A stretch of DNA of 64,000 bases from Clostridium sp. 19966 (GCF_032335695.1 NZ_JACTOJ010000004.1:194029-258028), one strand, 5' to 3'. Positions 21 through 30,970 are shown, numbered from the stretch's first letter. The notes: generated by a model from the letters alone, not told the origin. Numbers and translations are program-made.

Positions 21-70
21 GCGGAACGGTTCACAAAAATTTGCATACAAATTTTTGTGAACCGTCCCCT
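21..70. repeat. Palindromic intergenic element copy 1 (GGAACGGTTCACAA-N19-TTGTGAACCGTCCCC); the spacer is itself palindromic, so the hairpin is about 22 bp long
   Basis: Read directly from the sequence; same arms as copies at 1104, 13233, 15979, 21064 and 30912. Confidence 0.85.
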
Positions 71-136
71 TCCTTTTTTACAATTTATATTGTAATCTAT
101 TATTAACTTATTTGCTTTTTCTTGGAGGATTAAAAT

Positions 137-1099
137 ATGATTAATGTATTTGCAATTTCTAAAGATTATCAATTGATAGATATTGATGACCTTTCAGAGC
201 TTAACTCTGAAAAAATCAAATGGTATTGGATGGATATGGATGATCCAACTGAAGATGAAGTATCACTATTAAAAAGTTTTTTTAACTTTCATCAATTAGC
301 CATTGAGGACTGTCTTCATTATCTACAAAGAGCCAAAGTTGATAAATATGATACATACAACTTTTATGTAGTACATGGTATGAATAAGGATACCCTTTCA
401 GCAAATGAAGTAGACTTATTTATAAATGATAGATTCATTGTCTCTTTCCACAAGATGCACTTAAAAGAGATAGATGAAGTCATTGAGAAACTAAATTTTT
501 CAAATAAATATTGGGCTGGCGGGCCTCTAATAGTTAAATACCTTATTTTGGACAAGTTAGTTGATAATTATTTCCCATTAGTTTATGAAATAGAAGATTA
601 TTTGGATGATTTTGATGCTTTTGTTGAGGTTAATAAAAATAAATCCTCTAAGTATATGATTGATAAAATCTTTGAAGTCAGAAGCAAGCTTTTAAGAATG
701 AGAAGAATAATAAATCAAATGAGAGACTTGCTTTATAGAATGATAAATTCAGAAAGTCTTTTGAGAGACACGTCTAACCATGCTTATTTTGCAGATATTT
801 ATGATCATCTTTTAAGGTTATCGGATATTATCGAATCCAGTTTGCTTATAACATCTGACTTAAGAGATAGCTATATGTCTATAACTTCCGATAAGATGAA
901 TAGAATAATGATGCTCTTTACAGCAATAACCACCATTTTTGTTCCAGTAACATTCATTGCTGGAGTGTACGGAATGAATTTCCAAAACATGCCAGAACTT
1001 AACTGGAAATATAGTTATTTTCTTGTATTGTCTATCATGTTAGCTCTTATGGCATTCATGTTTTTTTGGTTTAAGAAAAAAGGTTGGTTTGATATTTAA
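137..1099 (+). CDS. corA: Magnesium/cobalt transporter CorA
   Basis: 320 aa; two C-terminal TM helices with the YGMNF signature (GMN motif); RBS GGAGG upstream of the ATG. Confidence 0.9.
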   Translation: MINVFAISKDYQLIDIDDLSELNSEKIKWYWMDMDDPTEDEVSLLKSFFNFHQLAIEDCLHYLQRAKVDKYDTYNFYVVHGMNKDTLSANEVDLFINDRFIVSFHKMHLKEIDEVIEKLNFSNKYWAGGPLIVKYLILDKLVDNYFPLVYEIEDYLDDFDAFVEVNKNKSSKYMIDKIFEVRSKLLRMRRIINQMRDLLYRMINSESLLRDTSNHAYFADIYDHLLRLSDIIESSLLITSDLRDSYMSITSDKMNRIMMLFTAITTIFVPVTFIAGVYGMNFQNMPELNWKYSYFLVLSIMLALMAFMFFWFKKKGWFDI

Positions 1100-1103
1100 G
1101 TTG

Positions 1104-1150
1104 AGGGACGGTTCACAAAAATCCCGCTATATTTTTGTGAACCGTCCCCT
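1104..1150. repeat. Palindromic element copy 2, filling the gap between convergent corA and lipoprotein genes
   Basis: GGGACGGTTCACAAAAAT-cccgctat-ATTTTTGTGAACCGTCCCC; sits between stop codons at 1099 (+) and 1149 (-); a T-rich run follows. Confidence 0.85.
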
Positions 1151-1853
1151 ATTTTTCATGATCAAACATATTATAGACTATGGAGTGAGATGTAAAAAAT
1201 ACTGCATTTGGATTTGCATTATAATAATTAGTTACTGCATAAACAACAAATTTATTATCTTCTTTCACCATAAAATAATTTATTATATTATTTGAATCTA
1301 CTTGAGTTCCATCATTGGCTACTACATGAAATATTATGCTGACTGAAACATTGAAAGCTCCTTGAGGTTTATCTTGAGCATATACGCCCCAAAGCTCACT
1401 TGCATTGTTGTTAGTTCCAACCTCCATTGTATAGCTTTTAGCATTAGAAATCTTAAACTGCCTTGTATATTCGGTAATCAAATCACTATTTTTAGGATAT
1501 GTTTTTGCTAAATCCATGTCTGAGTTCTGAGAAATCATATTAAAGTCGCCCTTTATTCCAGCATTAGTTAAATCTACTGCCAATTTTACTGCTGAATCTT
1601 TGTCTTGCTGGCTGAAATCCTTAAATTCCTGTGTTGTTGCTACAGTACTAACCGTTTGAGTGTTACTTGAAGCATCTGCAATTTGGCTTGAGGAGGTCGT
1701 AGAGCCGTTCTGACTGCTTGTACTACTGCTGGACTTTGAAGAGCTTGATGAACTTGACGAACTAGCCTTCTTGGAACTACATCCCGCTAATATGGAAATA
1801 AAAATTACAATTATTATAAAATTAAATATTCTTTTTCTCATGCTATCCTCCAA
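1149..1853 (-). CDS. Lipoprotein of unknown function (signal peptide with LAGC lipobox, Ser-rich linker)
   Basis: N-terminus MRKRIFNFIIIVIFISILAGCSS followed by a poly-Ser tract. Confidence 0.7.
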   Translation of the reverse strand: MEDSMRKRIFNFIIIVIFISILAGCSSKKASSSSSSSSSKSSSSTSSQNGSTTSSSQIADASSNTQTVSTVATTQEFKDFSQQDKDSAVKLAVDLTNAGIKGDFNMISQNSDMDLAKTYPKNSDLITEYTRQFKISNAKSYTMEVGTNNNASELWGVYAQDKPQGAFNVSVSIIFHVVANDGTQVDSNNIINYFMVKEDNKFVVYAVTNYYNANPNAVFFTSHSIVYNMFDHEK

Positions 1854-1993
1854 AACATTTTTCGCCTATTATTAATTAAATTTTAATTTATTTTATAAAA
1901 AAAATCAATTAATAATATTAGATGCCGATTTTTATCACTATAATTGGCTTCCAAAATAATTATTAACTGATTACTATCATATTAATGAACATA

Positions 1994-2980
1994 TCAGTCG
2001 TTTTTATCTATATTTATTTCTTTTTCAATTATGTAAAGAGGTCTGCCCTTGCTTTCATCATATATTCTTCCTATATATTCTCCTAAGACTGCAACCGATA
2101 AAAGTTGAACTCCTCCCAAAAATGTTACTACAACCATAATCGAAGTCCATCCAGAAATAACATTATGACTTCCTGCAATTTTAACAATTATAGCATATAA
2201 AAATATCAAGAATGATAATACTACACATATTAAGCCAATGGACCCAACTAATTTTAAAGGCTTGGCTGAAAATGATACAATTCCATCAGATGCAAATTTC
2301 AACATTTTTTTCAATGGATATTTAGTTTCCCCTGCGAATCTCTCATCTCTCTCATATTCTATTGGAATTTGTTTAAATCCAGCCCAACTGACCATTCCTC
2401 TAACAAATCTGTTGTTTTCCTTCATTGAATTAAATACATTAACCACCTTACGATCCATAAGCCTAAAATCACCAGTGTCTAATGGAATATCAATATCGGA
2501 CATGTTATGTAAAAATCTATAAAAACATTTCGCTGTAACTAATTTGAAAAACGATTCACCTTTTCGCTTTTTTCTCTTAGCATAAACCACATCATATCCT
2601 TGCTTCCAAAGCTCTATCATTTTAGGTATAACTTCTGGTGGATCCTGTAAATCTGCATCAATTACAACCACTGCATCACCTTTAGCTTTATTTATACCTG
2701 CGGTTACAGCAATTTGATGTCCAAAGTTTCTCGAGAAGCTTATAACTCTAACATTTTCATCTTGTGCTGCTATATTTTCTAGCAATGGAAGTGTTTTATC
2801 AGTGCTTCCATCATTAACAAAAACAAATTCATAATTAATGTCATTGTCAGTCATTACCTTTTTTAATCGTTTATAACATTCTTCTACTACAAGTTCCTCG
2901 TAGTACATGGGAACTACTATTGAAACTAACTTTTTTATCATATATCTTATCCTTTCGAAGTTCATAAATCTTTTTAACAT
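1994..2980 (-). CDS. Family 2 glycosyltransferase, bactoprenol/dolichol-phosphate sugar transferase type (GtrB/ArnC-like) with two C-terminal TM helices
   Basis: VSIVVPMYYEE...DGSTD...VIDADLQDPPE motifs; C-terminal TM pair; likely true start at Met14 (about 2941) with an AAGGA RBS. Confidence 0.8.
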   Translation of the reverse strand: MLKRFMNFERIRYMIKKLVSIVVPMYYEELVVEECYKRLKKVMTDNDINYEFVFVNDGSTDKTLPLLENIAAQDENVRVISFSRNFGHQIAVTAGINKAKGDAVVVIDADLQDPPEVIPKMIELWKQGYDVVYAKRKKRKGESFFKLVTAKCFYRFLHNMSDIDIPLDTGDFRLMDRKVVNVFNSMKENNRFVRGMVSWAGFKQIPIEYERDERFAGETKYPLKKMLKFASDGIVSFSAKPLKLVGSIGLICVVLSFLIFLYAIIVKIAGSHNVISGWTSIMVVVTFLGGVQLLSVAVLGEYIGRIYDESKGRPLYIIEKEINIDKND

Positions 2981-4545: not shown

Positions 4546-4561
4546 AATAGTACCCAAAATA

Positions 4562-6225: not shown

Positions 6226-6305
6226 TTGTGAACCGTCCCCCATACTTTTTTCTCAATGCCTTAGCAAAATATTCCTAACTCATAAATGTTTGTGAACCGT
6301 CCCCT
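6226..6305. repeat. Two half-copies (right arm only, TTGTGAACCGTCCCC) of the palindromic element, at 6226-6241 and 6289-6305
   Basis: Arm sequence present twice, 63 nt apart; the second abuts the stop of the 6304 MFS gene. Confidence 0.8.
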
Positions 6306-7563
6306 ATATTGCCGACTCCTGGTTTCTAAGCTTCTTATCCATTCTTTTAGAGAAGATTTTTAACACAAACATTAGCATGGCTGCTATTAGGGTTACCAAG
6401 AAAGTTAGTTTCCAGATAGAATTGCTCCCGTGAGCCTGCATATAGGCACCTGATATAGATGCACTCAATGCGGAACCTATAGCACCGCCTATGGAGGAAA
6501 CCGCACTTAGTCTAGCTCTGTAATTGCTTGGACTATTATTAGCCACATAAACTCCTGAGCTTATGCTTCCAAGTATTTCCCCTGAGGTCCAAATTATTGT
6601 GGATATTATAAATAGAGTAAAATGATTTATATAAGCAAGCATCCCGAAGCCTAGGGCATACATTACACCAGAAAGAGCTGTATTAGTAAGCGGATGATTT
6701 TTTCTTGTGAGCACTGTCAAAAATACTGTTAACGCCAACACGGTTACTGCATTTATGCTCATAAGATATCCAAAAAGGTGAGCACCCTGACTGCCATAAA
6801 TGCTTCGCAAGGTCATTGGTAATGCAAATCCGGCCTGAGCATACGCAAAGCTGTATACTGAGGATATTAAAATAAAGAAGCATATGTGAGGCCTTTTATA
6901 GAGAACAGTGAATATATTACCTCCCTCGGCCTTCTCTGCTGCGTATTTTTCATGAACCTTATTTGTTTTTTCTCCAGTTTTATATTTAGGATGGGTTTCC
7001 TCAATATTTTTCCATATCAAAAATAATGCTACAAAGGATGTAAATGCATCCCCTAAAAATAGAAGTGGCAGAAAATTATTAAATAGGAAGCCTGCAACTA
7101 TAGGACCTACTGATACTCCCACATTTATACCCAAATATTGAAGAGAAAAGCCCACCTGTCTTTGCTCTGGGGAAAGCATATCCGTCATTATTGAATTAAA
7201 AGCAGGTCTTATAAATCCATTGAAGAAGGTACTGATTATAAGACAAGTTACAGTCAAGGAAGCATTCTTTGTAAGAGCGCAAGGAATCAAAGCTGCAGCT
7301 GAAATAAACTGAGAGTACATATAAGCTTTCTTTCTTCCAAATTTATCAGCAATCTTTCCGCCTATGAGTGAAGAAGGAATGCCTATGAGAGAAGAAATGG
7401 TAACAAGCATTCCTGTTACTGCAGTGGACATTCCAACCTTTTCAGTGAGATAAAGTGTAAGAAACGGTCTTACAAAGTCACCGAATCTATTGATTATCTG
7501 AGCAAAAAATATTACATACATTCCTTTAGGTAATCCCCTGTATGCATTCAAAAGTCTTCGCAT
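6304..7563 (-). CDS. MFS transporter (second, paralogous); the ORF runs to 7602, and the probable start is the ATG at 7563-7569 after a GAGGGGG RBS
   Basis: MFS motifs GKIADKFGRKK; 12 predicted TM helices. Confidence 0.8.
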   Translation of the reverse strand: MRRLLNAYRGLPKGMYVIFFAQIINRFGDFVRPFLTLYLTEKVGMSTAVTGMLVTISSLIGIPSSLIGGKIADKFGRKKAYMYSQFISAAALIPCALTKNASLTVTCLIISTFFNGFIRPAFNSIMTDMLSPEQRQVGFSLQYLGINVGVSVGPIVAGFLFNNFLPLLFLGDAFTSFVALFLIWKNIEETHPKYKTGEKTNKVHEKYAAEKAEGGNIFTVLYKRPHICFFILISSVYSFAYAQAGFALPMTLRSIYGSQGAHLFGYLMSINAVTVLALTVFLTVLTRKNHPLTNTALSGVMYALGFGMLAYINHFTLFIISTIIWTSGEILGSISSGVYVANNSPSNYRARLSAVSSIGGAIGSALSASISGAYMQAHGSNSIWKLTFLVTLIAAMLMFVLKIFSKRMDKKLRNQESAI

Positions 7564-7644
7564 GTGCATCGCCCCCTCATTAGTTAAATATACTATCATC
7601 ATTTTAAATACTTGGAACTATGAAAAAATAACATAATTTAATCG

Positions 7645-10592: not shown

Positions 10593-10645
10593 TTATTGGA
10601 CTCTATTTATAAATAGAGTTCTAAGCCTTTTTAGAATTCTTCCTT

Positions 10646-11980
10646 TTAAAATCCATTGTTTCTTATAACTTCACTGTACCATTTTGCGCTGTCTTTAGGA
10701 GTTCTTTTCTGGGTAGCGTAATCCACATGCACTATTCCAAATCTCTTTTCATAGCCAAAGGCCCATTCAAAGTTGTCCATGAAGGACCATAAATAATAGC
10801 CTGCTAAATTCACTCCCTTATTTATAGCTTCATGCATAGCCATAAAATGTCTTTGAAGATAATCTATTCTATTCGTATCTTTTACTGTTCCGTCCAAGCT
10901 TACAATGTCATTGAAGGCAGCTCCGTTTTCTGTGATATATATTTTTACATGGTTATAATCATTGCTTAATTTCACCAAAAGATCTGTAAGTCCTTCCGGT
11001 ATTATCATCCACCCCATCTCAGTTTTTGGCTGCACCCCATCCTTATAGCATATTCCATATGGATCTTCATTATTTTTTGCAATATACGCTGATGAATAAT
11101 AATTTATTCCCAAAAAATCTATTGGCTCACTGGCGATTTTAAGTTCTTCAACATCTATGTCTGGAAATAAATCTAGCTCTTTATATTTTGCCATAGGAGC
11201 TTTTGGATATTCTCCCTTAAATATTGGCTCTGAGAACCAGCTGTTTTCTAACTCGTGAGCAGTCTCGGCTGCTTTTAAAGCTTCCTCACTAGCATTGTAA
11301 GGATATTTGTATCCCATATTTAAAACTATCCCGATTTCTCCCCGGCAGCTCATTTCTCTGAAGGCTTTAACTACCTTTCCATGAGCTACTAAAGCATTAT
11401 GTGCTGCGGTAAGTGCTGCTTTTGTGTCTTTATAGCCAGGAGCATGCTCTCCTCTTTCATAGCTTAATATAGTGAATACCCAAGGTTCATTCATAGTTAT
11501 CCAAGTTGATACCTTATCCCCCAGTTCAGTAAATATATATTTACAATATTCTACAAAATAATCTCCAACCTGAGGATTAGTCCACCCTCCTATGTCCTGA
11601 AGCTTTTGAGGCAAATCCCAGTGATATAATGTTATAGCTGGTTTTATACCTCTTTCTATAAGTAAAGCTACTATTTTTTTATAGAATGCTATTCCTTTAG
11701 GATTCGGTTTGCCAAAGCCATTAGGGAATATTCTTGGCCATGCTATTGAAAATCTGTAAGATTTCATTCCTAAGCTCTTCATTAAATCTATATCTTCTTC
11801 AAATCTGTGGTAATGATCACAGGCTATATCTCCTGTATCTCCATTTAATACATTCCCCGGTATATGCGAAAATCTGTCCCAAATGGATTCTCCTCTGCCA
11901 TCTTCTTTAACTGCTCCTTCTATTTGATAGGATGCCGTAGCTGTTCCCCAAACAAAATCTTTCGGAAATTTAAATTCCAT
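10646..11980 (-). CDS. bglA: GH1 beta-glucosidase / 6-phospho-beta-glucosidase
   Basis: 444 aa; TMNEPW acid/base and YITENG nucleophile motifs. Confidence 0.9.
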   Translation of the reverse strand: MEFKFPKDFVWGTATASYQIEGAVKEDGRGESIWDRFSHIPGNVLNGDTGDIACDHYHRFEEDIDLMKSLGMKSYRFSIAWPRIFPNGFGKPNPKGIAFYKKIVALLIERGIKPAITLYHWDLPQKLQDIGGWTNPQVGDYFVEYCKYIFTELGDKVSTWITMNEPWVFTILSYERGEHAPGYKDTKAALTAAHNALVAHGKVVKAFREMSCRGEIGIVLNMGYKYPYNASEEALKAAETAHELENSWFSEPIFKGEYPKAPMAKYKELDLFPDIDVEELKIASEPIDFLGINYYSSAYIAKNNEDPYGICYKDGVQPKTEMGWMIIPEGLTDLLVKLSNDYNHVKIYITENGAAFNDIVSLDGTVKDTNRIDYLQRHFMAMHEAINKGVNLAGYYLWSFMDNFEWAFGYEKRFGIVHVDYATQKRTPKDSAKWYSEVIRNNGF

Positions 11981-12296
11981 ATTAGCGCCTCCTCGCTTAT
12001 TCTATAAAAGCCCGTACTGTTATTAAAGCTTCATATAATACTATTTTTCTTAATTTAATTATAAATTTATGCATTTAACGCGTGTCCATGATAGTATATC
12101 ATGGAGTTTTTTTGTACACAATGTAATAAATTATAGTTAGTTCTTTAATAATTATAGTTTTTATTCGAAAAAAAGTCCCTAAAAATACATGTTATCTTCT
12201 TTTTCTTACATATTAATTGGTGGAGGTACTTGTTTAAAACATACATAAAAAGCTATAATATTATTGTTAGTACTTGAAGAAGGAAGTGTAGATTTA

Positions 12297-13226
12297 ATGA
12301 ATATAGTTATGCTTGAACCTATTGGAGTTGCAGGTAAAGTTCTAGATCATCTTACTGCTTTTTTGACAGAAAAAGGTCATAAATTTATTCCCTATTTTGA
12401 AAGAAATGACGATGTAGATGTTCTTAAATCCAGAGTTAAAGATGCGGATGTCTTAATAATTGCAAACATGCCTCTTAAAGGCGAGGTTATAAGAGCTGCT
12501 GAAAATTTGAAGTTTATTTCCGTAGCCTTTACTGGTATAGATCATATAGATTTAGAAGTTTGTAAAGAAAAGAACATAATTATAAAGAATGCTGCTGGAT
12601 ACAGCACAAACTCTGTAGCAGAAGTTGCTATTGGACTTATGATAGATGTAATGAGAAATATTGTACCTCTCGATAAGCTTACAAGAGAAGGCGGTACAAA
12701 GGCTGGCTATTCTCAAAGAGAGCTTTTTGGAAAAACTCTCGGCATTGTGGGAACTGGTGCTATAGGTATTAAAACTGCGGAAATAGCTTCTGCTTTCGGA
12801 ATGAATATAATTGCTTACAGCAAGACTAAAAAGTCTGAAGTAATAAATAAAGGTATAAAATATGTGGAGCTCAATGAATTATTGGAAAATAGTGATATTG
12901 TAAGTCTTCATGTACCTTTCACTGCTGAAACCAAGCAGCTTATTAACGGAAAAAACATCGCTAAAATGAAGCCTTCTGCTGTACTTATAAATACTGCTAG
13001 AGGCGGAGTTGTAGACAATGAAGCTTTAGCAAAAGCTCTTTCAGAAGGAAAGATAGCTGGTGCAGGTGTAGATGTTTTTGACATGGAACCTCCTATACCT
13101 GAAGACTATCCTCTGCTTAAGGCTCCAAATGCAGTTTTTACTCCTCACATAGCTTTTGCTGCTGAAGAAGCTATATTGAGAAGAGCTGACATAGTATTTG
13201 ATAATATTAGAGATTATTTAAAATAA
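12297..13226 (+). CDS. D-isomer-specific 2-hydroxyacid dehydrogenase (glycerate/phosphoglycerate dehydrogenase family); the ORF begins at 12264, and the likely start is the ATG at 12297 after GGAAG
   Basis: NAD-binding GxGxxG (GIVGTGAIG), catalytic R/E/H arrangement typical of the family. Confidence 0.8.
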   Translation: MNIVMLEPIGVAGKVLDHLTAFLTEKGHKFIPYFERNDDVDVLKSRVKDADVLIIANMPLKGEVIRAAENLKFISVAFTGIDHIDLEVCKEKNIIIKNAAGYSTNSVAEVAIGLMIDVMRNIVPLDKLTREGGTKAGYSQRELFGKTLGIVGTGAIGIKTAEIASAFGMNIIAYSKTKKSEVINKGIKYVELNELLENSDIVSLHVPFTAETKQLINGKNIAKMKPSAVLINTARGGVVDNEALAKALSEGKIAGAGVDVFDMEPPIPEDYPLLKAPNAVFTPHIAFAAEEAILRRADIVFDNIRDYLK

Positions 13227-13232
13227 TTTAAA

Positions 13233-13336
13233 GGGACGGTTCACAAAAATTTGCGATTTATACTTGCCCAATTTAAGTTGCAAACTTTAAGTTGCAAGCT
13301 ACGAAAGCTGCTAAATAATTGTGAACCGTCCCCATA
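13233..13336. repeat. Palindromic element copy 4 with a long (about 70 nt) spacer that contains a tandem TTTAAGTTGCAA direct repeat
   Basis: Left arm at 13233-13248 and right arm at 13318-13335; begins 7 nt after the stop of the + strand gene. Confidence 0.8.
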
Positions 13337-13339
13337 AAA

Positions 13340-13371
13340 AAATCAGCTTTACGCTGAAGCTGATTTTTTTA
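13340..13371. terminator. Bidirectional rho-independent terminator (AAAAAATCAGCTTtacgctgAAGCTGATTTTTTT)
   Basis: Perfect 9-bp stem flanked by A- and T-runs; overlaps the stop codon of the dapF ORF. Confidence 0.8.
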
Positions 13372-14356
13372 ATATATCCCTTGTATGCTGGTACATTTTT
13401 TCATATTGAATAGTTTCATAATCATAAGCTTTATAGTCAAATCTTTTTAGGATCTCTTCTCTTGATTCAAGTTCATTAGCATAAGGAAGCTTATTTGAGT
13501 CCAAGGTTCCTCTGAATACATAAGTGGCATTACCTATAAATTCTACAGAATATTTATCTCCTATTTTATTGACTATGCATTTTATCATTCCGCCATCATT
13601 GAACACATTTATCTCTTCTCCTAATGGACACTTACCTGCTATAGTACATACTACTACAGATGCTGTCATTCCTGTTCCGCAAGCCTTTGTAAGTCCAACG
13701 CCTCTTTCGTAAGTTTTTACATATATATTATTAGGAGATATAACTTTTACAAAGTTAACATTAACTCCTTTAGGCAATATATTTATGCCGCTGTTAGCTG
13801 TCTTGCCCACCTTCACAAGCTCCTCTTCGCATATTTCATCCATTATTGAAACTAAATGAGGATTTGTAACGCTTACCGCAGAAAAAGTGAGGTTTTCTGA
13901 TAATTCCTTTATATTTTCAAAAAATACTGTGCTCTTACTATTCTCAAGTGGAAGATCAGCTGCATTGAAGGTAATGGAATCAATTGTTATCTTAACAGTC
14001 TTTACTCCTTCATATAAATCATCCATCTTCTTAACTAAGTATTGAGCTTTCATAGTTTCAATAGTTACCTCGTTCATATTAAAGGCTTCCAATACATATC
14101 TTCCTACGCATCTCAAGCCATTCCCACACATTTCTGGCTCAGTACCATCTGCATTAAAAATTCTCATCTTTCCATGGCAGCTACTGCTTTTCTGCACAAA
14201 AAGTATTCCATCAGCCCCAATGGATTTTTTCCTGTCACATAAAGTTATAGCCAAATTTCTTCTTTGCTCTTCATTAAAATTAAAAACATGTGATATCTCG
14301 TCAATAAGTATAAAATCATTGCCCGTACCATGACATTTAATAATAGGAATCTTCAT
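13349..14356 (-). CDS. dapF: Diaminopimelate epimerase with an unusual C-terminal extension of about 50 aa
   Basis: Both catalytic Cys motifs (MCGNGLRC and ACGTGMTAS); 335 aa against about 275-290 typical. Confidence 0.75.
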   Translation of the reverse strand: MKIPIIKCHGTGNDFILIDEISHVFNFNEEQRRNLAITLCDRKKSIGADGILFVQKSSSCHGKMRIFNADGTEPEMCGNGLRCVGRYVLEAFNMNEVTIETMKAQYLVKKMDDLYEGVKTVKITIDSITFNAADLPLENSKSTVFFENIKELSENLTFSAVSVTNPHLVSIMDEICEEELVKVGKTANSGINILPKGVNVNFVKVISPNNIYVKTYERGVGLTKACGTGMTASVVVCTIAGKCPLGEEINVFNDGGMIKCIVNKIGDKYSVEFIGNATYVFRGTLDSNKLPYANELESREEILKRFDYKAYDYETIQYEKMYQHTRDILKKSASA

Positions 14357-14685
14357 TTATAATCCTCCCCATAATACAAGAACGCATATGGATTGTTATT
14401 TTACCAATATATTATTAACACACCTTCTCGTTCTTTATTTTTAAATTCATCTAAATGTAGTATTAAAGCAGTGTAAAAATCAACACTGGTTTAAAATAGA
14501 GCCTTAAGTTAAAAAATAAATTATTTTTTAACATTAATATAACTATATTTTATCATTTTTCACATTAATAAATCTATCTTTATAATACTTTTTTATTTAA
14601 TATTTTTATAATTTTATGAAATCGTTTTAAATTATATTTATAAAAATTTACATATCATAATGTAATAAGTCTTATTTTAAATGAA

Positions 14686-14730
14686 AAAAGGCCCACATAC
14701 CATAAATTTTGTATGCAGACCTTTTAAACT
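14686..14730 (-). terminator. Probable rho-independent terminator downstream of ldh (imperfect stem GGTCTGCATAC / GTATGTGGGCC plus UUUUU on the minus strand)
   Basis: Seen in sequence. Confidence 0.45.
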
Positions 14731-15685
14731 ATATATTTAAGCTTTTTAAAACTTCGGACATGTTTTCTGCGCTCTTTTTCAAAAGTGCTATTTCTTCGCT
14801 GGCAAGAGGAACTTCTACTTTTCTATCTATTCCTTCACTGGATAATATGCAAGGAATGCTTAAAGCCACATTTTTAATGCCGTATTCTCCTCTTAATGTA
14901 GTTGACACTGGAAGTATACTCTGTTCATTTAGCAGTACAGCCTTCACCAGTCTATTTACGGTCATAGCAATTCCTGAACTTGTATATCCCTTATATTGAA
15001 CGATATCAAGCCCTACTTCTCTTACTTCATTTAATATTTCTTCTTTATTTAATGCTACGTCTTTTCCATAAACCTCTGATAGCTTATCAAAAGGAACTCC
15101 TGCAATATTTACAGTGCTCCAAGTGGCAAAAGCGCTGCTTCCGTGCTCTCCCATTATATATCCATGTACGTTTTTAGCATCCACTGAATACTTTTCAGCT
15201 ATTATTCTTCTGAATCTTGCTGTATCTAAGGATGTTCCTGTTCCGATTATCTTCTTTTCGTCGTATCCAAAATGATTTTGAGCTAAATATGTTAGTATAT
15301 CCACCGGATTGCTTACAGTTATTATAACTGCATCCTTGGTGTATTTACATATGCTTTCCATCACACTGGACATTACTTTTACATTTCTATCTGCCAATAT
15401 CAATCTATCAAGCTTTTCTCCTGGCTTAATACTTGGTCCAGCAGTCATTACTATTACTTGTGCATCCTTGCAGTCTTCATAGTCTCCTACTCTGATAGAA
15501 ACATTAGGGCTATATGCAAAGGAGGTGGTATGGCTTGCATCTAATGCCTCTCCTTTAGCCTTATCCTTATTCATATCTACAATTACAATTTCAGATATAA
15601 GCGATAATGACAACAATGCATTTAAAACCGAGCTTCCAACCATGCCGGCTCCAATGACTACAACTTTATTTTTAACAGGTTTCAT
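14729..15685 (-). CDS. ldh: L-lactate dehydrogenase; the ORF extends to 15736, and the likely start is Met18 (MKPVKNKVVVIGAG) at 15685
   Basis: GAGMVG NAD-binding loop; GEHGSS active-site histidine motif; 318 aa from the proposed start. Confidence 0.85.
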   Translation of the reverse strand: MKPVKNKVVVIGAGMVGSSVLNALLSLSLISEIVIVDMNKDKAKGEALDASHTTSFAYSPNVSIRVGDYEDCKDAQVIVMTAGPSIKPGEKLDRLILADRNVKVMSSVMESICKYTKDAVIITVSNPVDILTYLAQNHFGYDEKKIIGTGTSLDTARFRRIIAEKYSVDAKNVHGYIMGEHGSSAFATWSTVNIAGVPFDKLSEVYGKDVALNKEEILNEVREVGLDIVQYKGYTSSGIAMTVNRLVKAVLLNEQSILPVSTTLRGEYGIKNVALSIPCILSSEGIDRKVEVPLASEEIALLKKSAENMSEVLKSLNI

Positions 15686-15978
15686 GATTCTTTTATCCTC
15701 CTCGCTTATTATAGGATTTCTATAGTTTATTTTCATTTATATATTGCAAAATATTATATTCAAAAATATTTCACCACGTGAATAAATGTACAGCTTACTT
15801 TGAAGTCCTATATATAAAACTAATTTTAAATTACTATACTTATCAATATTATTCTACCATTTATGAATATTTCTACACAACAATTTGCGATTAAATATAA
15901 AAAAACCATGAATTTAGCATAAAATCTAAGCAAAAAGTATTTATTTTGCAATTTTAAACGATAAACATTGCAATTATA

Positions 15979-16080
15979 AGGGGACGGTTCACAAAAATTA
16001 GCATTGAAGGCGCCAATTTTCTTGTGAACCGTCCCCTAAAAATTTAACTTCAGGTGCAAAAGCTTGTGAACCGTCCCCTA
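15979..16080. repeat. Palindromic element copy 5 (left arm, right arm, and an extra right arm at 16064-16080)
   Basis: GGGGACGGTTCACAA...TTGTGAACCGTCCCC...TTGTGAACCGTCCCC; ends about 15 nt before the xylB stop. Confidence 0.85.
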
Positions 16081-16094
16081 CTTTTTCCTACTTT

Positions 16095-17612
16095 TTAGAA
16101 ACTTAACAACTTGAAGGAATCCTTTAAGCTCGGATAAAGCTTTGTGAAAACTTCATATACCTTATTGTATTTTTCTACATTTTCAGGTATTGGAGATACT
16201 TCATTTGTAACCTTTATTAGCTTTTCACAGGCTTCATCTACGGTTTTGAATAATCCACAGCCAACAGCTGCAAGGATAGCAGCACCGTAGGCTGGTCCTT
16301 CTTTTGAATTTATGAGAGCTACCTTAGTATTTAAAACATCTGCAAGTATCTGTCTCCACAAAACGCTCTTGGAGCCGCCGCCGCTTACTCTCACTTCTTC
16401 TATTGGAACCTTGAGAGACCTTAATATTTCTAAAGAATCTCTAAGTCCAAAACATACACCTTCAAGAATTGCTCTGGTCATGTCTCCTCTTTCAGTGGTC
16501 ATGGTCATGCCTACGAAGGTTCCTTTTGCGTGAGGATCTGAATGAGGTGTCCTCTCTCCCATAAGATATGGAAGATAAACCACTCCATTAGCTCCAACCT
16601 TGCTTTTAGCTGCTTCTTCAAGAAGGAAATCAAAAGTTTTAGCCGAATCTTCCCCGCATAAGCCTTTATTTATCTGCTCTACCCACCATTTAAGGCAAGA
16701 AGCCGCAGAAAGCATAACTCCCATCTGATGGTATTTTCCATTAGCATGGCAGAAGGAGTGAAGTCTGTTGTCATCATCTACTTCATATTTTTCAGAGCTT
16801 GCAAATATTACTCCAGAGGTTCCAAGAGCCGCTGATAATATTCCCTCTGATACTGTACCAGTTCCAACTGCTCCAGCTGCCTGGTCTCCTGCTCCACCTA
16901 CAACAATAGTAGCTGTAGCAAGTCCTGTATATTCAGCCACTTCTTCTGTAAGAGTTCCAGTTGGCTCCCAGGATTCTACTACTCTTGGAAGCATTGCTTC
17001 AGTTATTCCTGTTATCTCAAGCATCTCCTTAGACCACTTTCTTCCTTCCACGTCTAAAAGCAGCATTCCTGATGCATCTGAAACATCTGTGGCAAATTCT
17101 CCAGTAAGCTTCAATCTGATGTAATCCTTTGGAAGCATTATATACTTAGCTTTTGCAAATATTTCAGGCTCATGCTTTTTAACCCATAATATTTTTGGTG
17201 CTGTGAAGCCTGTCAATGCTTTATTTCCTGTATACTTTGATAATTTATCTTGTCCTATAACTTCATTTAAATACACACATTCTTCTTCTGTTCTTTGATC
17301 ACACCAAAGAATGGCTGGACGAAGCACGGAATAATGCTCATCAAGCATAACTAAACCATGCATTTGCCCGCTAAAGCCTATTCCCTTTACAGCTTCGCTG
17401 CTTAATTTAGATTTTGCCAATAATTCTTTAAGTCCGTCTCTAACTGCTTCCCACCAATCTTCTGGGTTCTGTTCTGCAAAGCCAGGCTTAGGATAGCTTA
17501 CATCATAGTCCTTTGACAAAGCTTCTACTACCTTACCTTCATCATTCATAATAACTAACTTTACTGAGGAAGTTCCTAAATCAATTCCTACAAAATTCAT
17601 AACTTTCACCAT
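16095..17612 (-). CDS. xylB: Xylulokinase (FGGY family)
   Basis: N-terminal GIDLGTSSVK; FGGY C-terminal motifs; position within the xylose cluster. Confidence 0.9.
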   Translation of the reverse strand: MVKVMNFVGIDLGTSSVKLVIMNDEGKVVEALSKDYDVSYPKPGFAEQNPEDWWEAVRDGLKELLAKSKLSSEAVKGIGFSGQMHGLVMLDEHYSVLRPAILWCDQRTEEECVYLNEVIGQDKLSKYTGNKALTGFTAPKILWVKKHEPEIFAKAKYIMLPKDYIRLKLTGEFATDVSDASGMLLLDVEGRKWSKEMLEITGITEAMLPRVVESWEPTGTLTEEVAEYTGLATATIVVGGAGDQAAGAVGTGTVSEGILSAALGTSGVIFASSEKYEVDDDNRLHSFCHANGKYHQMGVMLSAASCLKWWVEQINKGLCGEDSAKTFDFLLEEAAKSKVGANGVVYLPYLMGERTPHSDPHAKGTFVGMTMTTERGDMTRAILEGVCFGLRDSLEILRSLKVPIEEVRVSGGGSKSVLWRQILADVLNTKVALINSKEGPAYGAAILAAVGCGLFKTVDEACEKLIKVTNEVSPIPENVEKYNKVYEVFTKLYPSLKDSFKLLSF

Positions 17613-21063: not shown

Positions 21064-21121
21064 AGGGGACGGTTCACAAATTTTTGCAGCTATTACTGCG
21101 AATTTTTGTGAACCGTCCCCT
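21064..21121. repeat. Palindromic element copy 6, immediately 3' of cadA-type ATPase gene
   Basis: GGGGACGGTTCACAA-N27-TTGTGAACCGTCCCC ending 5 nt before the stop codon at 21126. Confidence 0.85.
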
Positions 21122-21125: not shown

Positions 21126-23333
21126 TTATTTTGTTGATAAAGCTCGCATGGAATTCAATACCGCTATTAGAGCAACTCCCACATCTCCAAAAACTGCTTC
21201 CCACATGGTAGCTATTCCCAAAGCTCCCATTATGAGTATTACTGCCTTAACTGCTAATGCAAAAACTATATTTTGCATTACTATAGTGCTGGTTCTTCTA
21301 GCTATTTTCACAGCTGCTGCTATCTTTGAAGGTTCGTCCGTCATTATAACTACGTCGGCGGCTTCAATCGCAGCATCTGATCCTATGCCTCCCATGGCTA
21401 TTCCCACATCAGCTCTTGCTAATACTGGTGCATCATTTATTCCATCTCCAACAAATATAAGCTTTCCTTTTTCGCTTTTGCTTCCATAGAGTTCTTCTAA
21501 CTTCTGAACCTTGTCCTGAGGAAGCAGTTCAGAATATACCTTATCCACTTTCAACTCTTTAGCCACTGAATCTGCAGTTTTCTTGTTATCGCCTGTAAGC
21601 ATTACAGTTGTTGTTATTCCTATTTTCTTAAGTTCTCCAATGGCTTTGGGAGAATCTTTTTTAATAGTATCTGCTATAATTACTGTACCTGCATACTTGT
21701 TATCTATGGCTACATGAATCAAAGTTCCTTCAGCTTCTATAGGTTTTTCTACTATTCCTTTAGCTTCTAGAAGCTTCACATTTCCAGCAAGTATTTCTTT
21801 TCCTTCTACCTGTGCAGATAATCCTTTACCTGCAATTTCCTGATATTTATCGATGGCTTCCTTATCTATTGCTTTTCCGTAAGCTTTTACAATTGAAAGA
21901 GCGATAGGATGATTTGAATAGCTTTCTACCTTTGCTGCTGCTTCAAGCACTTCTTCTTGAGTAAAGCCTTCCATGCTCACTATTTCTTTCACATCAAAAG
22001 CCCCTTTGGTTAAAGTACCAGTCTTATCAAACACTACAATCTCTGCATTTTTTAGGGCTTCAAGATAATTTCCTCCCTTTATCAATATGCCTAGCTTAGA
22101 AGCAGCGCCTATTCCTCCAAAGAAGCCAAGGGGTATGGATATGACTAAAGCACAAGGGCAAGAAACAACTAAGAATACCAAAGCCCTGTTTATCCATCCA
22201 TATAGGTTACCTACGAAAATTGGTGGTATAAAGGCTAGAAGTGCTGCTGCTATAACTACTACAGGAGTGTAATATCTAGCAAATTTAGTGATAAATTTTT
22301 CAGTTTGTGCTTTCTTGCTTCCGGAATTCTGAACCAGTTCCAATATTTTCGAAACAGTAGATTCTCCGTAACTTTTAGTTACCTTTAAAGTTAACACTCC
22401 ATTTTTATTCACAGAACCTGATAATACCTCATGGCCGCTTTCAACTTCTCTCGGCATAGACTCACCGGTTAATGCACTAGTGTCTATAGCTGCTGAGCCT
22501 TCTATAACAATTCCATCCAAAGGCACCTTCTCGCCGGCTTTAACTAAGATTAGATCTCCCACATTAACTTTCTCAGGAAAAACCTTGATAATATCACCAT
22601 CGACCTTTACATTAGCATAATCAGGTCTTATATCCATCATGGCTTGAATAGATTTTCTAGACTTGTCTACCGCCATGTCCTGAAAAAATTCTCCAACTTG
22701 GTAAAACAGCATTACCGCTACACCCTCAGCATACTCGCCCACTGCAAAGGCTCCTACTGTAGCTAGTGCCATAAGAAAGTTTTCATCAAAGATTTCGCCT
22801 TTTATGATGTTTCTGATAGCTCTAAAAAGTACTGATCCTCCTATCATAAGATAGCTTACAAAGTAGAGAGCAAATTCTTCTATTGAATTCAATTTAATAA
22901 AACGAGCGGCTATAAAGCATAAAACTCCTAGAGCGAACTGCATTATCTGCTTAAATTCAAGCTCTTCACCTTCATCATGGCTGTGACTATAATCATGTGA
23001 ATGTCCATGATGATGCTCCTCTTCCTGCTTTGAGGAATCATCATATTCACAGCTGCAGCCTTTAACATTAGCTTTTCCCGGAAATTTTTTAACATTTTTA
23101 TTTTCATATCTCACTTTTACATCAGGTTCAACTACACTGACTATACCTTCTATTTCAGAAACCAGAGTTTTAAAATCTTTTTCTCCGCTGACCTCCACAA
23201 AAAGTTTTTTGGATACAAAATCAATTACGGAAGTTTCAACTCCGCTAAGCTTCCCTACTCTGCTTTCTATTTTAGCTGCACAATTTGCACAGCAAAGATT
23301 TTCTAGGATAAATTCATTCTTTACAGCACTCAT
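21126..23333 (-). CDS. cadA: Heavy-metal (Cd/Zn/Co-type) translocating P1B-type ATPase
   Basis: N-terminal HMA domain with CANC, His-rich stretch HHHGHSHDYSHSHDE, TM CPC motif (SCPCALV), DKTGTLT phosphorylation site, GDGINDAP. Confidence 0.9.
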   Translation of the reverse strand: MSAVKNEFILENLCCANCAAKIESRVGKLSGVETSVIDFVSKKLFVEVSGEKDFKTLVSEIEGIVSVVEPDVKVRYENKNVKKFPGKANVKGCSCEYDDSSKQEEEHHHGHSHDYSHSHDEGEELEFKQIMQFALGVLCFIAARFIKLNSIEEFALYFVSYLMIGGSVLFRAIRNIIKGEIFDENFLMALATVGAFAVGEYAEGVAVMLFYQVGEFFQDMAVDKSRKSIQAMMDIRPDYANVKVDGDIIKVFPEKVNVGDLILVKAGEKVPLDGIVIEGSAAIDTSALTGESMPREVESGHEVLSGSVNKNGVLTLKVTKSYGESTVSKILELVQNSGSKKAQTEKFITKFARYYTPVVVIAAALLAFIPPIFVGNLYGWINRALVFLVVSCPCALVISIPLGFFGGIGAASKLGILIKGGNYLEALKNAEIVVFDKTGTLTKGAFDVKEIVSMEGFTQEEVLEAAAKVESYSNHPIALSIVKAYGKAIDKEAIDKYQEIAGKGLSAQVEGKEILAGNVKLLEAKGIVEKPIEAEGTLIHVAIDNKYAGTVIIADTIKKDSPKAIGELKKIGITTTVMLTGDNKKTADSVAKELKVDKVYSELLPQDKVQKLEELYGSKSEKGKLIFVGDGINDAPVLARADVGIAMGGIGSDAAIEAADVVIMTDEPSKIAAAVKIARRTSTIVMQNIVFALAVKAVILIMGALGIATMWEAVFGDVGVALIAVLNSMRALSTK

Positions 23334-23853: not shown

Positions 23854-24160
23854 AGGAAAATTTTTTGTCAATAAAAATGGCTATATCTTAAAATATCTTT
23901 ATAAAATCTTTAGTTATCTGCCATGAATTCTTTCATAAACAGCTACTCAAATCACTAAAGATAATATCAACATTTTAAAACATAACCTACCAAATAAAGC
24001 AGGTTCAGATAAATATTTAGGTGCTTAAAAGCAACACTTATCTTAAACCTGCTTATCATTTAAATTATGAACTTGTATATCTGTATATTTAGAGTTAAAA
24101 TTAGCTTGAGAATATATACTTTATAGAAATATCTTAAAAAATGTTTATTTTAAGATATTT

Positions 24161-24532
24161 CTATTTTTTTATTAGTTCTTCTATGGCTTTTTCTAATTTA
24201 TATACTTTTTTATATAATTCTATTTCTCTCTTTATAAGATTCTTTTCTGAGAGTGCTGTCATAAGCTGGTCTTGTGCATGTATAACTAAAAAGTTAGGAG
24301 TCTCTTTATCCATTTGACCTTGTATCAGCATGTTTTGATATTCATGACCATCATAAAATTCTTCATCTGCCTCTTCAAGACATTTTTCTGCTAATTCAAA
24401 CTTTCCTTCCTCTGCTGCATCTAACGCTTCATAGGCTTTTCCTCTTGCGTTTCCTCCATGAAGTACTAAATTAAAAATTATTTTCTCTAAATCTAATTTT
24501 GTTTCTTCGCTCACCTTTAAACCTCCATTCAT
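24161..24532 (-). CDS. PTS lactose/cellobiose-family IIA component
   Basis: 123 aa helical IIA(Lac) fold features; operon position after IIC. Confidence 0.8.
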   Translation of the reverse strand: MNGGLKVSEETKLDLEKIIFNLVLHGGNARGKAYEALDAAEEGKFELAEKCLEEADEEFYDGHEYQNMLIQGQMDKETPNFLVIHAQDQLMTALSEKNLIKREIELYKKVYKLEKAIEELIKK

Positions 24533-26518: not shown

Positions 26519-26552
26519 TTTTTCACCTCCTTTAATAGTTTCATTTATAAAT

Positions 26553-28649: not shown

Positions 28650-28779
28650 AAATCACCAACCTAATGTATTGAGTAACGATTTGCCTTCATAAATATTATA
28701 TATTTGCCTACATTTACTATGCAAGTAAAACATAAACATATATTGTCTCTTTAGTTTTGACATATTCTCAATAATAAAA

Positions 28780-28838
28780 GGCTATGCTTTAAGATGTTGA
28801 TAGTGCTAAAAATAATATCAACATCTTAAGACATAGCC
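28780..28838 (-). terminator. Rho-independent terminator of the GT4/EamA operon: 22-bp near-perfect stem (GGCTATGCTTTAAGATGTTGATA / TATCAACATCTTAAGACATAGCC) followed by UUUUAUU on the minus strand
   Basis: Seen in sequence. Confidence 0.65.
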
Positions 28839-28877
28839 TCTCAAAAAACGAGATTTAAAATTATATAAGAAATAAAT

Positions 28878-29216
28878 TTATATTGATATAAATAATGCTC
28901 CCAGCATTATGAATATGATTCCTATTATTTTATATTTTGTTATTTTTTCATTTAAAAGAAAATAGGATATTGTCAGTGTCCATATGTAAGTTATGGAGGT
29001 CAGCGGCAATACTACTGTATAAGGCAGAAGCTTCAGCACATATATATTAAGTAAAGCGCTGGTAACATAGAGCATTCCCCCTATATAGAACCATTTGCTG
29101 AACATTACACTGTATATTTTATCCGTAGATGAGGTAGCCAGCTTTAAAGTGTATCCTCCAAAAGCTCCCATAATGGTCATGACTAAAATTATAAGATATG
29201 CGCTAATGATCGCCAC
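28878..29216 (-). CDS. EamA/DMT half-transporter (4 TM), ArnE/ArnF-like
   Basis: 112 aa, 4 TM; overlaps its paralogous neighbour by 14 nt. Confidence 0.6.
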   Translation of the reverse strand: MAIISAYLIILVMTIMGAFGGYTLKLATSSTDKIYSVMFSKWFYIGGMLYVTSALLNIYVLKLLPYTVVLPLTSITYIWTLTISYFLLNEKITKYKIIGIIFIMLGALFISI

Positions 29217-29559
29217 CTCCTATGAAAACCACTCCAGTTATTATAAATAGCACCCCTATTACTTTAAAGGCTCCCACGCTCTCCTGCAAAAAGAAAGAGC
29301 CAAATAAAAGAGCAAATACATAGCTTAAGCACATCATGGGATGAAGTACTGAAAAGCTTCCAAATTTGAAGGCAATTATCATAAGAACAGCTCCTGCGCC
29401 ATAACATATAAAGCCTAGTCCTAAGAATATGTAATTGTGGGACAGCTTCCAAAACAATTGACCAATAGAGGTAAGTAAAGATGCAATCAGCATGAATATT
29501 ATGCCTTTATAGTTTTTTTTCAAAGATTCCAAATAACCCGTCATATTTTCCTCCGTCAT
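29203..29559 (-). CDS. EamA/DMT half-transporter (4 TM), ArnE/ArnF-like partner
   Basis: 118 aa, 4 TM; overlaps the GT4 gene stop by 4 nt. Confidence 0.6.
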   Translation of the reverse strand: MTEENMTGYLESLKKNYKGIIFMLIASLLTSIGQLFWKLSHNYIFLGLGFICYGAGAVLMIIAFKFGSFSVLHPMMCLSYVFALLFGSFFLQESVGAFKVIGVLFIITGVVFIGGGDH

Positions 29560-30758
29560 ATTTTCATTGTTGGTACTTTCATTCTTCTTTCCTTGTTCCA
29601 GTTATTCTTTTCTATGATTTCTTCGTATTTTTTTAGCACTCTGGAAGATATGGTTTCCCAGCTTTCAAACACTGTATTTTGAGCATTTTCTCCAACCTTA
29701 TAACGGAGCTCTTTTTGGTTAATGATATCAATTATTTTATTACAATAAGAATTTTCTTCTTCCTCCGCAATAAAACCATTGAAGCCATCTTCTATGCCTT
29801 CTGAAGCGTTTGAATCTCTCACTACTAAGGAAGGAGTTCTTACTGCAGCAGCTTCCCTCACTACTATACCAGAGGTGTCATAAACTGACGGAAATAAGAA
29901 TAAATCAGCTCTTGCAAATATGGTCTTCAAAAGCTCTCTATCGTGAATGACTCCAAGGAACTTTACACGATCATCTAGCTTATATTTCTCCACCAGTTCC
30001 TCCATGTCTTTTTTCACAATTCCCTCACCTACAAAAAACATTTTGAAATTTTCACCCTTATCTCTTAAAAGTCTAAGAGCTTCAATTATTAGCCTGGTAT
30101 TCTTCTGCCATATATGCTGTCCTACAAATAGCAGCACCCTATCTTCTTCATCTACTTTTAGGTAGTCTGCACCTTTTCTTATGTATTCCTTCAGGTTTCC
30201 TATGGTATCAAAATCCGCACCATTATGCATTATATTTATAATTCCATTATAGCCATATCTTCTCAAGGTTTCAGCAGTAGAGTCATTTACTGTCCAAACA
30301 GCATCCACTTCATTGTAAAAGCTTATTATCCTTTGGGTCATTAACTTAGCGATACTATCAGATTTTGTAGCTTCCTTAAAATCGTCGTAGTATTTAGAGT
30401 GAAAAGTTGTTATCACTGGTATTCCTCTTTTTCTTGCTATTTTAAGAGCTAATTTACCAGAGGTAAATGGACAATGACAATGCACTAAGTCAAAAGGAAT
30501 AGTGTTTACATCCTTATTAAAATTATAATCTAACTGAGGTATTCCATACCTATAGGGCCTTCTCTTGGGAAGCGGAACAGAAAAATATCTTAACACCTTA
30601 AAATCATTAATATCTTCATAGCCAGGACAGCTTGGTGTAACTACATAACTATCACAGCCCTTTCTGCTAAGCCAATAGGCATAATTCTTGGTTACATTAG
30701 CCACTCCATCCATAACAGGCTCATAAGAATCATTAAATTGTCCTACAGTAAACTTCAT
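29556..30758 (-). CDS. GT4-family glycosyltransferase (cytoplasmic; glycolipid/cell-envelope glycan synthesis)
   Basis: 400 aa; GT-B fold with the E-x7-E region (REAAAVRTPSLV...EGIEDG). Confidence 0.7.
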   Translation of the reverse strand: MKFTVGQFNDSYEPVMDGVANVTKNYAYWLSRKGCDSYVVTPSCPGYEDINDFKVLRYFSVPLPKRRPYRYGIPQLDYNFNKDVNTIPFDLVHCHCPFTSGKLALKIARKRGIPVITTFHSKYYDDFKEATKSDSIAKLMTQRIISFYNEVDAVWTVNDSTAETLRRYGYNGIINIMHNGADFDTIGNLKEYIRKGADYLKVDEEDRVLLFVGQHIWQKNTRLIIEALRLLRDKGENFKMFFVGEGIVKKDMEELVEKYKLDDRVKFLGVIHDRELLKTIFARADLFLFPSVYDTSGIVVREAAAVRTPSLVVRDSNASEGIEDGFNGFIAEEEENSYCNKIIDIINQKELRYKVGENAQNTVFESWETISSRVLKKYEEIIEKNNWNKERRMKVPTMKI

Positions 30759-30911
30759 AATATGTCATTGCTGCTAAAATAAATAATTGACGCTTAAGCC
30801 AGCCATATATTTTAAACAGCCTTTCCTCCTTTTAGTTTTATATAACAATTTACAACATGTCATCACCTATATTATACAATACTCTCATCAATTGTGGAAA
30901 TTAAAAAGCTA

Positions 30912-30970
30912 AGGGACGGTTCACAATTATTAGCACTTTCATGCTATGAATTTTTGTGAACCGTCCCCTG
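30912..30970. repeat. Palindromic element copy 7, immediately 3' of the flotillin gene
   Basis: GGGACGGTTCACAA-N26-TTGTGAACCGTCCCC; the stop codon is about 3 nt away. Confidence 0.85.

Follow-up and report, generated by a model that had tools for sequence, protein, structure and literature searches.

REP-associated tyrosine transposases (RAYTs; REP: repetitive extragenic palindrome) have relatives whose RAYT-like genes are flanked by long inverted repeats and not by REPs with the head motif GTAG, and these were named TIRYTs or TIRtrons (Di Nocera, De Gregorio and Rocco, 2013; PMC3733652). The corresponding terminal inverted repeat (TIR) families share the motif GGGGWSAS, are moderately abundant and occur as singles, dimers and groups (PMC3733652). 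Later, most TIRYTs were classified into subclass 2.1 of the TnpA_REP proteins, with C-termini resembling Bac_DnaA_C or helix-turn-helix (HTH) domains, and REP-like sequences were not found near subclass 2.1 genes (Quentin et al., 2018; PMC6006769). Group 1 RAYTs were reported to occur in Clostridia, and the flanking 16-mers average only about 12 per replicon (Bertels et al.; PMC5581495). Clostridium and the Firmicutes are not mentioned in the main texts of PMC3733652 and PMC6006769. Here, we describe a stretch of 64,000 nucleotides from Clostridium sp. 19966 (GCF_032335695.1 NZ_JACTOJ010000004.1:194029-258028; the window, to which all coordinates refer unless a contig is named), in which a 15-nt repeat, the arm, recurs singly and in inverted pairs close to stop codons. 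The probability that these elements are the dispersed non-coding TIR family of a RAYT-like tyrosine (Y1/HUH) transposase of the TIRYT type is put at about 0.8. The string of the arm itself was not found in the searched literature.

With up to three mismatches allowed on both strands, the arm GGGGACGGTTCACAA was found in 15 copies at seven loci between positions 22 and 30968, each copy having 0-2 mismatches, while shuffled sequences contain a mean of 0.33 copies and none of 100 shuffles reaches 15. This confirms the dispersed palindrome family that had been proposed in an earlier reading of the window made without database searches (the sequence-only reading), the element coordinates of which were correct to within 1-3 nt. 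The arms start at 22 (+), 55 (-), 1104 (+), 1135 (-), 6226 (-), 6290 (-), 13232 (+), 13319 (-), 15980 (+), 16022 (-), 16064 (-), 21065 (+), 21106 (-), 30912 (+) and 30954 (-) and form six inverted pairs and three singles (6226, 6290 and 16064). The earlier tally of seven full copies is corrected to six pairs, and the spacer between paired 15-nt arms measures 16-72 nt and not 19 to about 70 nt. The complementary stems are 18-27 nt long. Computed as single-stranded DNA (ssDNA) hairpins, the paired copies fold with -19 to -26 kcal/mol (z -5.7 to -11); the segment 6222-6308, which holds two single arms, gave no structure on folding (z -0.9). No arm with up to three mismatches was found at 31-64 kb, and matches with 4-5 mismatches stay at chance level across the window, which therefore holds no decayed copies. 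Rfam searches at the gathering threshold, and also with E values up to 1, returned no family at the elements. The loci, with folding energies (dG) and neighbouring open reading frames (ORFs), are the following.

E1, 22-69, no strand assigned: hairpin of the arms 22-36 (2 mismatches) and 55-69, stem 21 nt, loop 4 nt, dG -21, z -9.1; the corA-like ORF 137-1099 lies 67 nt downstream of it, and both flanks are T-rich.
E2, 1104-1149, no strand assigned: hairpin with perfect 18-nt arms, dG -20.4; the convergent ORFs 137-1099 (+) and 1149-1853 (-) are separated by a gap of 49 nt that the element occupies entirely, the first G of the arm is overlapped by the TAG stop of the (-) ORF, and the + strand of the element is terminator-like with the tail TATTTTTCAT.
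E3a, 6226-6240, - strand: partner-less single arm, GGGGACGGTTCACAA on the - strand, without a fold.
E3b, 6290-6304, - strand: single arm, a direct repeat of E3a at a distance of 64 nt; its first G is overlapped by the TAG stop of ORF 6304-7602 (-).
E4, 13232-13333, no strand assigned: pair of the arms 13232-13246 and 13319-13333 with a 72-nt spacer; the 2-hydroxyacid dehydrogenase ORF 12264-13226 (+) stops 5 nt ahead of it, and a distinct canonical terminator, which is bidirectional (13335-13371), comes right after it.
E5, 15980-16078, no strand assigned: pair of the arms 15980-15994 and 16022-16036, joined by a further '-' arm at 16064-16078; ORF 16095-17612 (-) has its stop 16 nt away, and the '+--' pattern of the element recurs in other genomes.
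E6, 21065-21120, no strand assigned: hairpin with 27-nt arms and a 6-nt loop, dG -25.8, z -11.2, 5 nt past the stop of the P-type ATPase ORF 21126-23333 (-); the transcribed strand has no T-run.
E7, 30912-30968, no strand assigned: hairpin; the flotillin/SPFH ORF 30974-33028 (-) stops 5 nt ahead of it.

When 162 arms from many genomes were summarised as a frequency matrix, 15 positions, (G/A)GGGACGGTT(C/A)ACAA, proved nearly invariant, and the outer edge was abrupt. The 9-nt core GGGACGGTT is universal and the inner part is specific for the lineage, being CACAA in the window genome and AACAA, CAGCA, CATTA or CATCA elsewhere. The arm is not self-complementary. Conservation covers 15 nt of sequence and not pairing. 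In 29 of 61 cases, arms distant from the transposase gene have the same inner 5-mer as the arms next to the gene, compared with 7.6 when loci are shuffled. Across loci, arms occur as '-', '+', '+-', '++', '++-', '++--' and other patterns, i.e., as singles, dimers and groups, and in all 98 arm clusters '+' precedes '-', with the reverse order '-+' never found within 160 nt. A resemblance to the DnaA box was considered and rejected: the window variant contains TTCACA, which fits the TNCACA half, whereas other lineages have TTAACA, TTCAGC or TTCATT at a constant GGGACGGTT, and the likeness is probably a coincidence.

The sequence-only reading had proposed a search of the genome for a cognate TnpA-REP-like gene, and this search was positive. 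No transposase gene of this type lies inside the window. The 310-aa protein P0063, annotated 'transposase [Clostridium sp. 19966]', is recorded on a contig of 275,259 bp and contains the Pfam domain Y1_Tnp (E 3e-14). Six proteins encoded in the window are identical to Clostridium sp. 19966 proteins recorded on a contig of this same length, apparently the one that also carries P0063 outside the window. A 4-kb contig (L121) encodes exactly P0063 at 119-1051, with one arm on either side of the gene (17-31 and 1220-1234), and both arms are the window's own variant GGGGACGGTTCACAAAAAT. For the source genome the arm count covers the 64-kb window and this 4-kb contig. A profile search returned 2048 relatives at E <= 1e-10, P0063 being among them, and P0063 is the single match for Clostridium sp. 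19966 among the best 120 family hits. In four further genomes, Clostridium grantii, two Bacillota metagenome-assembled genomes (MAGs) and a Ca. Epulonipiscium MAG, the gene directly flanked by arms codes for a Y1_Tnp protein of 315-332 aa (IS200-like, E 1e-14 to 1e-16), for which the best NCBIfam match is the REP-associated tyrosine transposase, below its cut-off.

The association of arm and gene was quantified at metagenome loci encoding relatives of P0063, of which 60 were retrieved and the 40 with at least 34% identity were used for counting the core. The exact core GGGACGGTT stands in '+' orientation within 450 nt upstream of the gene at 26 of 33 loci, the nearest copy lying 82-284 nt before the start, and in '-' orientation within 900 nt downstream at 20 of 25 loci, 110-804 nt and mostly 110-440 nt past the stop; at 17 of 24 loci it is found on both sides. 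The chance of one such 9-mer per 450-nt stretch is about 0.002. Around relatives with 26-31% identity the core is mostly missing. Each gene end often carries 2-4 arms as direct repeats in relatives, and direct '++' arrays like E3a/E3b are likewise found upstream of the transposase gene. At every locus examined the gene bounded by arms encodes a Y1/HUH enzyme. In 72,556 plasmids just six distant, partial matches to the protein were found. Some genomes encode two or three diverged TIRYT paralogues, each with its own flanking arm arrays: L133 and L144 lie about 6.7 kb apart on contig UOOI01000056, and P0015, P0020 and P0045 are from Clostridium thermarum.

An alignment of 36 family members shows no variation at the HUH histidines and at the tyrosine. 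An AlphaFold model of P0063 based on 36 homologues has a mean pLDDT of 85, and its best Foldseek match in the PDB is 4er8_A (E 5e-5, TMt 0.75), a complex of the E. coli RAYT with a REP hairpin, followed by the IS608, ISDra2 and IS200 transposases. The C-terminal domain of the model superposes on 1j1v_A, domain IV of DnaA on a DnaA box (TMt 0.82, rmsd 2.0). The sequence profile matches DnaA chains weakly (E 0.05-0.2), and the homologue from C. grantii has a match to the DnaA C-terminal HTH domain (PF08299, 29.9 bits). In BLASTP comparisons with eight published TIRYTs, seven matched P0063 at E 7e-22 to 8e-14 and the eighth, aba 1552, at 4e-07, compared with 3e-4 for classical RAYTs. P0063 and the TIRYTs published for Pelobacter, Geobacter, Hahella and Desulforudis are 30-35% identical. 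With the NCBIfam equivalog NF047646 (REP_Tyr_transpos), which has a cut-off of 80, P0063 scores 45.6 bits and the copy from the Bacillota MAG contig L081 58.5 bits. Judged by sequence, P0063 is closer to the published TIRYTs than to classical RAYTs.

The family shares with TIRtrons a RAYT-like gene with an HUH motif and a catalytic tyrosine that is flanked by inverted repeats and not by GTAG-headed REPs, the scattering of the repeats as singles, dimers and groups, and repeats starting with GGGG. The main form here, GGGGACGG, matches the published GGGGWSAS at seven of eight positions; the exact match, GGGGACAG, is a minority variant of about 7% of the 162 arms. Different from the published TIR families, which are moderately abundant, is the high local density of 15 arms in 31 kb, and the TIRtron papers describe neither the universal core GGGACGGTT nor an inner part that is specific for the lineage nor the proximity to stop codons. 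As in TnpA_REP subclass 2.1, the C-terminal domain of P0063 is predicted by the model to be a HTH domain like that of DnaA domain IV; unlike what Quentin et al. reported for that subclass, repeats are present near the genes.

With the REP/REPIN-RAYT systems (REPtrons), the family has in common short extragenic, hairpin-forming repeats that lie mostly downstream of genes, with singlets beside doublets, and a chromosomal, here apparently single-copy Y1 transposase of the same fold that is flanked by the same repeat. In contrast to them, GTAG precedes just one of the 15 window arms, the repeat unit is not itself a palindrome, and the protein is double the length, with an additional HTH domain. 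The family has the traits of a TIRtron and not those of a classical REP family: a GTAG head is missing, the arm is not palindromic and the protein scores below the cut-off. The earlier proposal of REP-type elements with a TnpA-REP partner thus holds in that a RAYT-like partner exists; this partner is, however, of the TIRYT type with a DnaA-domain-IV-like HTH domain and not a classical REPtron RAYT, and the repeat unit is a non-palindromic 15-nt arm.

Other small repeats were compared as well. CGTC-tagged REPs are short stem-loops with CGTC at one terminus and have no dedicated transposase (Di Nocera et al., 2013; PMC3733652); in the arm, CGTC is internal (TTGTGAAC-CGTC-CCC), 3 nt from the end, and a dedicated gene is present, and these REPs were rejected as a match. 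The miniature inverted-repeat transposable elements (MITEs) of Firmicutes, such as RUP, BOX, Bcr1 and EFAR, are likewise small, non-coding, intergenic and hairpin-forming. Conserved interiors, target-site duplications and DDE partners, the hallmarks of MITEs, were not seen here. The enzymes of the IS200/IS605 family share the Y1/HUH chemistry. Their elements end in subterminal hairpins and not in inverted repeats, and their TnpA has about 130-150 aa, neither of which was seen here.

How the arms evolve was followed in related contigs. The strain contig L182, 98.6% identical to window 10636-16823, retains E4 and E5; over both elements it differs from the window at 14 positions in the spacers (126 nt) and at 2 in the arms (75 nt), and for E4 alone at 7 and 1, respectively. 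The spacers 13247-13318 and 15995-16063 differ at about 10% of sites, so that the loops evolve far faster than their surroundings. Two syntenic Bacillota MAGs (L081 and L024), the TIRYTs of which are 71% identical, share three gene ends at which a 19-nt arm has stayed intact although the sequence around it diverged, and decayed second arms are present as well. This conservation would fit selection or homogenisation acting on the arm and does not by itself tell mobility from domestication.

The number of arms varies widely among genomes with the gene; among the matches listed, with one genome per species, multi-arm loci were found in C. grantii, Clostridium tanneri, Ca. Epulonipiscium MAGs, two Bacillota MAGs and one Ktedonobacteraceae MAG. 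A search of 2.9 million viral contigs for the 15-mer gave only 19 unpaired matches, consistent with chance, and no pairs. The Ktedonobacteraceae MAG (Chloroflexota, 57% GC) carries at L105 900-990 and 4670-4740 a GC-rich hairpin version, GTAGGGGAGCGGTTCACAAGCCCG...CGGGCTTGTGAACCGCTCCCCTAC, with GTAG in front; no TIRYT gene lies near these arms within the 8-kb locus. In other genomes the arm is translated as ...GDGSQ..., at the C-terminus of a helicase-like protein (L081 3522-3548) and three times in the tail of a PHP-domain protein (L042 4749-5024); judging from these predicted ORFs, arms can become coding sequence or lengthen ORFs.

The proximity of arm clusters to stop codons is real. Within the window, the gaps between arm and stop are -1, -1, 4, 5, 5, 5, 15 and 16 nt for E2-E7, which corrects the earlier figure of about 0-15 nt for every copy; the left side of E1 lies beyond the start of the window. 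Across genomes, the distance to the adjacent stop has a median of 25 nt and is at most 5 nt in 26 of 92 cases, compared with a median of 96 nt and 2 of 75 cases for the adjacent start. When each cluster is placed uniformly inside its own inter-ORF gap, with ORFs called mechanically at >=100 aa, 4.8 of 64 clusters are expected within 5 nt of a stop; 18 were observed, which none of 200,000 simulations reaches. The cause could be an insertion preference, selection against other positions or the shortening of ORFs by the elements. An apparent 31:1 rule by which the GGGG end faces the stop was discarded as evidence, as it follows trivially from the arm order and the 15-nt distance filter. In E. coli, REPs within about 15 nt of the stop were reported, according to a summary in PMC12306157, to stall ribosomes and to lower expression (Liang, Rudd and Deutscher, 2015). 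The copies described here may be analogous to these insofar as a stable hairpin begins at most 16 nt from the stop; unlike them, three of the arms near stops are singles, for which no hairpin is possible.

The preferred reading, the TIR family of a TIRYT, has to be weighed against several observations that speak against it. No transposition, binding or cleavage by any TIRYT was reported in the literature searched. On L121, the sole contig with the gene, the two flanking arms share one orientation and the contig ends 16 nt past the upstream arm, so that the inverted layout is not shown for the source genome. No target-site duplication or conserved target motif was found, the outer flanks of the 162 arms being just AT-rich. 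A polymorphism of filled and empty sites was not found either; the sole close strain contig (L182) keeps both elements that it overlaps. Furthermore, intact orthologous arms fit maintenance at the level of the host or by a conversion-type process equally well as mobility. In another possibility, the arms would be duplex-DNA sites kept by the host for a domesticated, immobile TIRYT that binds them via its DnaA-domain-IV-like HTH domain and serves chromosome organisation, fork handling or regulation at gene ends. It would account for the gene being found once for Clostridium sp. 19966 among the 120 best family hits, for the near absence of the gene from plasmids and of the arm from viral contigs, for the intact orthologous arms between diverged flanks, for the lack of decayed copies in the window, for single arms that are common and fully conserved in sequence, and for a HTH fold that the model supports well. 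Yet decayed arms exist elsewhere (L081 compared with L024), the arm number varies widely among genomes carrying the gene, and the conservation of the catalytic HUH and tyrosine residues throughout the family argues that cleavage activity may be retained. We regard domestication as unlikely.

Other explanations would make the link to the transposase secondary or leave it out. The hairpins could primarily be RNA elements of the host that have a stem sequence in common and act as intrinsic terminators or stabilise 3' ends. Every testable locus is downstream of at least one gene, the stem bases are GC-rich and the stems very stable, and a scan for a hairpin plus T-run is passed by E2 (+ strand, after the corA-like gene) and E1 (- strand). 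However, the other five of the seven loci fail this rule. On the transcribed strand, the 10 nt that follow the hairpin contain at least six T for E1, E2 and E7 (three of six hairpins) and 4-5 for E5 and E6, so that the earlier statement that a T-rich tract usually follows was overstated. The canonical terminator that the sequence-only reading had seen right after the copy at 13233 does exist, E4 thus having its own, and in other genomes arms commonly stand just before or after ordinary terminators. In addition, the three single arms form no hairpin, the conservation is sharp over 15 nt of sequence and not over pairing, and the same arms are also located 5' of the transposase gene. Termination may be possible for a minority of copies and is probably not their common denominator, since U-tails are few, E4 has a separate terminator and three arms lack a hairpin. 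The elements are probably not mainly terminators, and a primary role as host RNA elements is quite improbable. Of the suggestion that REP-type repeats double as terminators, the REP-type part is borne out by the cognate RAYT-like gene, and the terminator part is weak, with two of seven loci passing. Far less probable still, and largely refuted, is the idea that the elements are MITEs of a DDE insertion sequence, uptake signals (DUS/USS-like) or Rex/CRP-like TGTGA...TCACA sites that merely form palindromes. Inverted 15-nt arms around unrelated interiors do resemble very short MITEs or paired uptake sequences, and the arm holds the half-sites TTGTGAA and TTCACAA. Against this, the arm-bounded gene is of the Y1/HUH type at all loci examined, a target-site duplication was not found, the order of the half-sites is wrong for Rex/CRP boxes (TCACA before TGTGA, spaced by 16-72 nt, with '-+' never within 160 nt), and the inner part varies with the lineage (AACAA, CAGCA, CATTA) while GGGACGGTT is constant. 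Uptake sequences, Rex/CRP boxes, integron attC sites and Tn7 ends were all discarded in view of the flanking of the Y1 gene, the fixed order of '+' then '-' and the patterns of core sites.

For the elements as a TIR family of a TIRYT, how the enzyme would mobilise them and what the copies might do at the RNA level we infer as follows. The functional unit would be the sharply bounded 15-nt arm, two of which, with the GGGG ends outward, would constitute a hairpin-forming mini-element, next to singles and nested or tandem arrays. P0063, flanked by the same arm variant, would be the cognate enzyme in the source genome. It may recognise the arm either as duplex DNA or as a two-arm stem in ssDNA, through its DnaA-domain-IV-like HTH domain together with the Y1 domain, and may cut ssDNA at the foot of the stem, where conservation ends abruptly. 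By this cutting, mini-elements would be copied or moved, as RAYTs are thought to do with REPs. Copies would persist just downstream of stop codons, where little harm is done. Transcribed hairpin copies would be located in 3' untranslated regions, and a few copies could terminate transcription or protect the 3' end. Copies within about 15 nt of the stop could impede ribosomes during termination, an effect that has been reported for REPs of E. coli. A wider proposal is put forward tentatively and is in our view doubtful: that this TIRYT branch, reported with few or no repeats, maintains a dense and long-lived population of arms in Clostridia and other Bacillota in a manner similar to REPIN-RAYT systems, the DnaA-domain-IV-like HTH domain reading the cross-phylum 9-nt core GGGACGGTT, the arms staying intact at orthologous gene ends and the stop-proximal hairpins tuning the translation of the upstream gene or the fate of its mRNA.

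The right half of the window is free of arms. In the region 35184-59000, a large serine recombinase (35184-36860, -) comes first and then a hexuronate/glucuronoxylan cluster with UxuA, a mannitol-dehydrogenase-like protein, GH67, GH2, UxaC, GH115, GFO/IDH/MocA, a GH2 mannosidase-like protein and GH36. This region is probably the 'island' of the sequence-only reading, in which no element was said to occur, and indeed zero arms lie in this serine recombinase and sugar-utilisation region. The make-up of the arm-free right half is consistent with recently acquired DNA. At its opening, a fluoride riboswitch (RF01734, 50.5 bits) lies at 34225-34285 (-), upstream of the small (-) ORFs 33732-34166 and 33369-33707. 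Further inverted repeats, which do not belong to the family, are located at 28779-28839, 24123-24164, 53931-53998 and 39846-39880; they comprise a 24-nt pair (92% complementary), a perfect intergenic 17-nt pair and two terminator-like hairpins between convergent genes.

For annotation, the arms have practical consequences. The short-read contig L121 stops 16 nt past an arm (1-31), which suggests that assemblies break at arms. Arms probably break short-read assemblies and can be mistaken for terminators or for the C-termini of ORFs (GDGSQ). The family is a new, dense Clostridial member of the known but little-studied TIR/TIRYT repeats. TIRYTs have been named, but no biochemical study was found in the searched literature, in which the term itself is rare. 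With a sharp-edged 15-nt site, a single two-domain protein of 310 aa and hairpins, single arms and arrays as natural substrates, the family constitutes a compact test system, and it could help to explain how REP-like repeats spread and why they gather just past stop codons.

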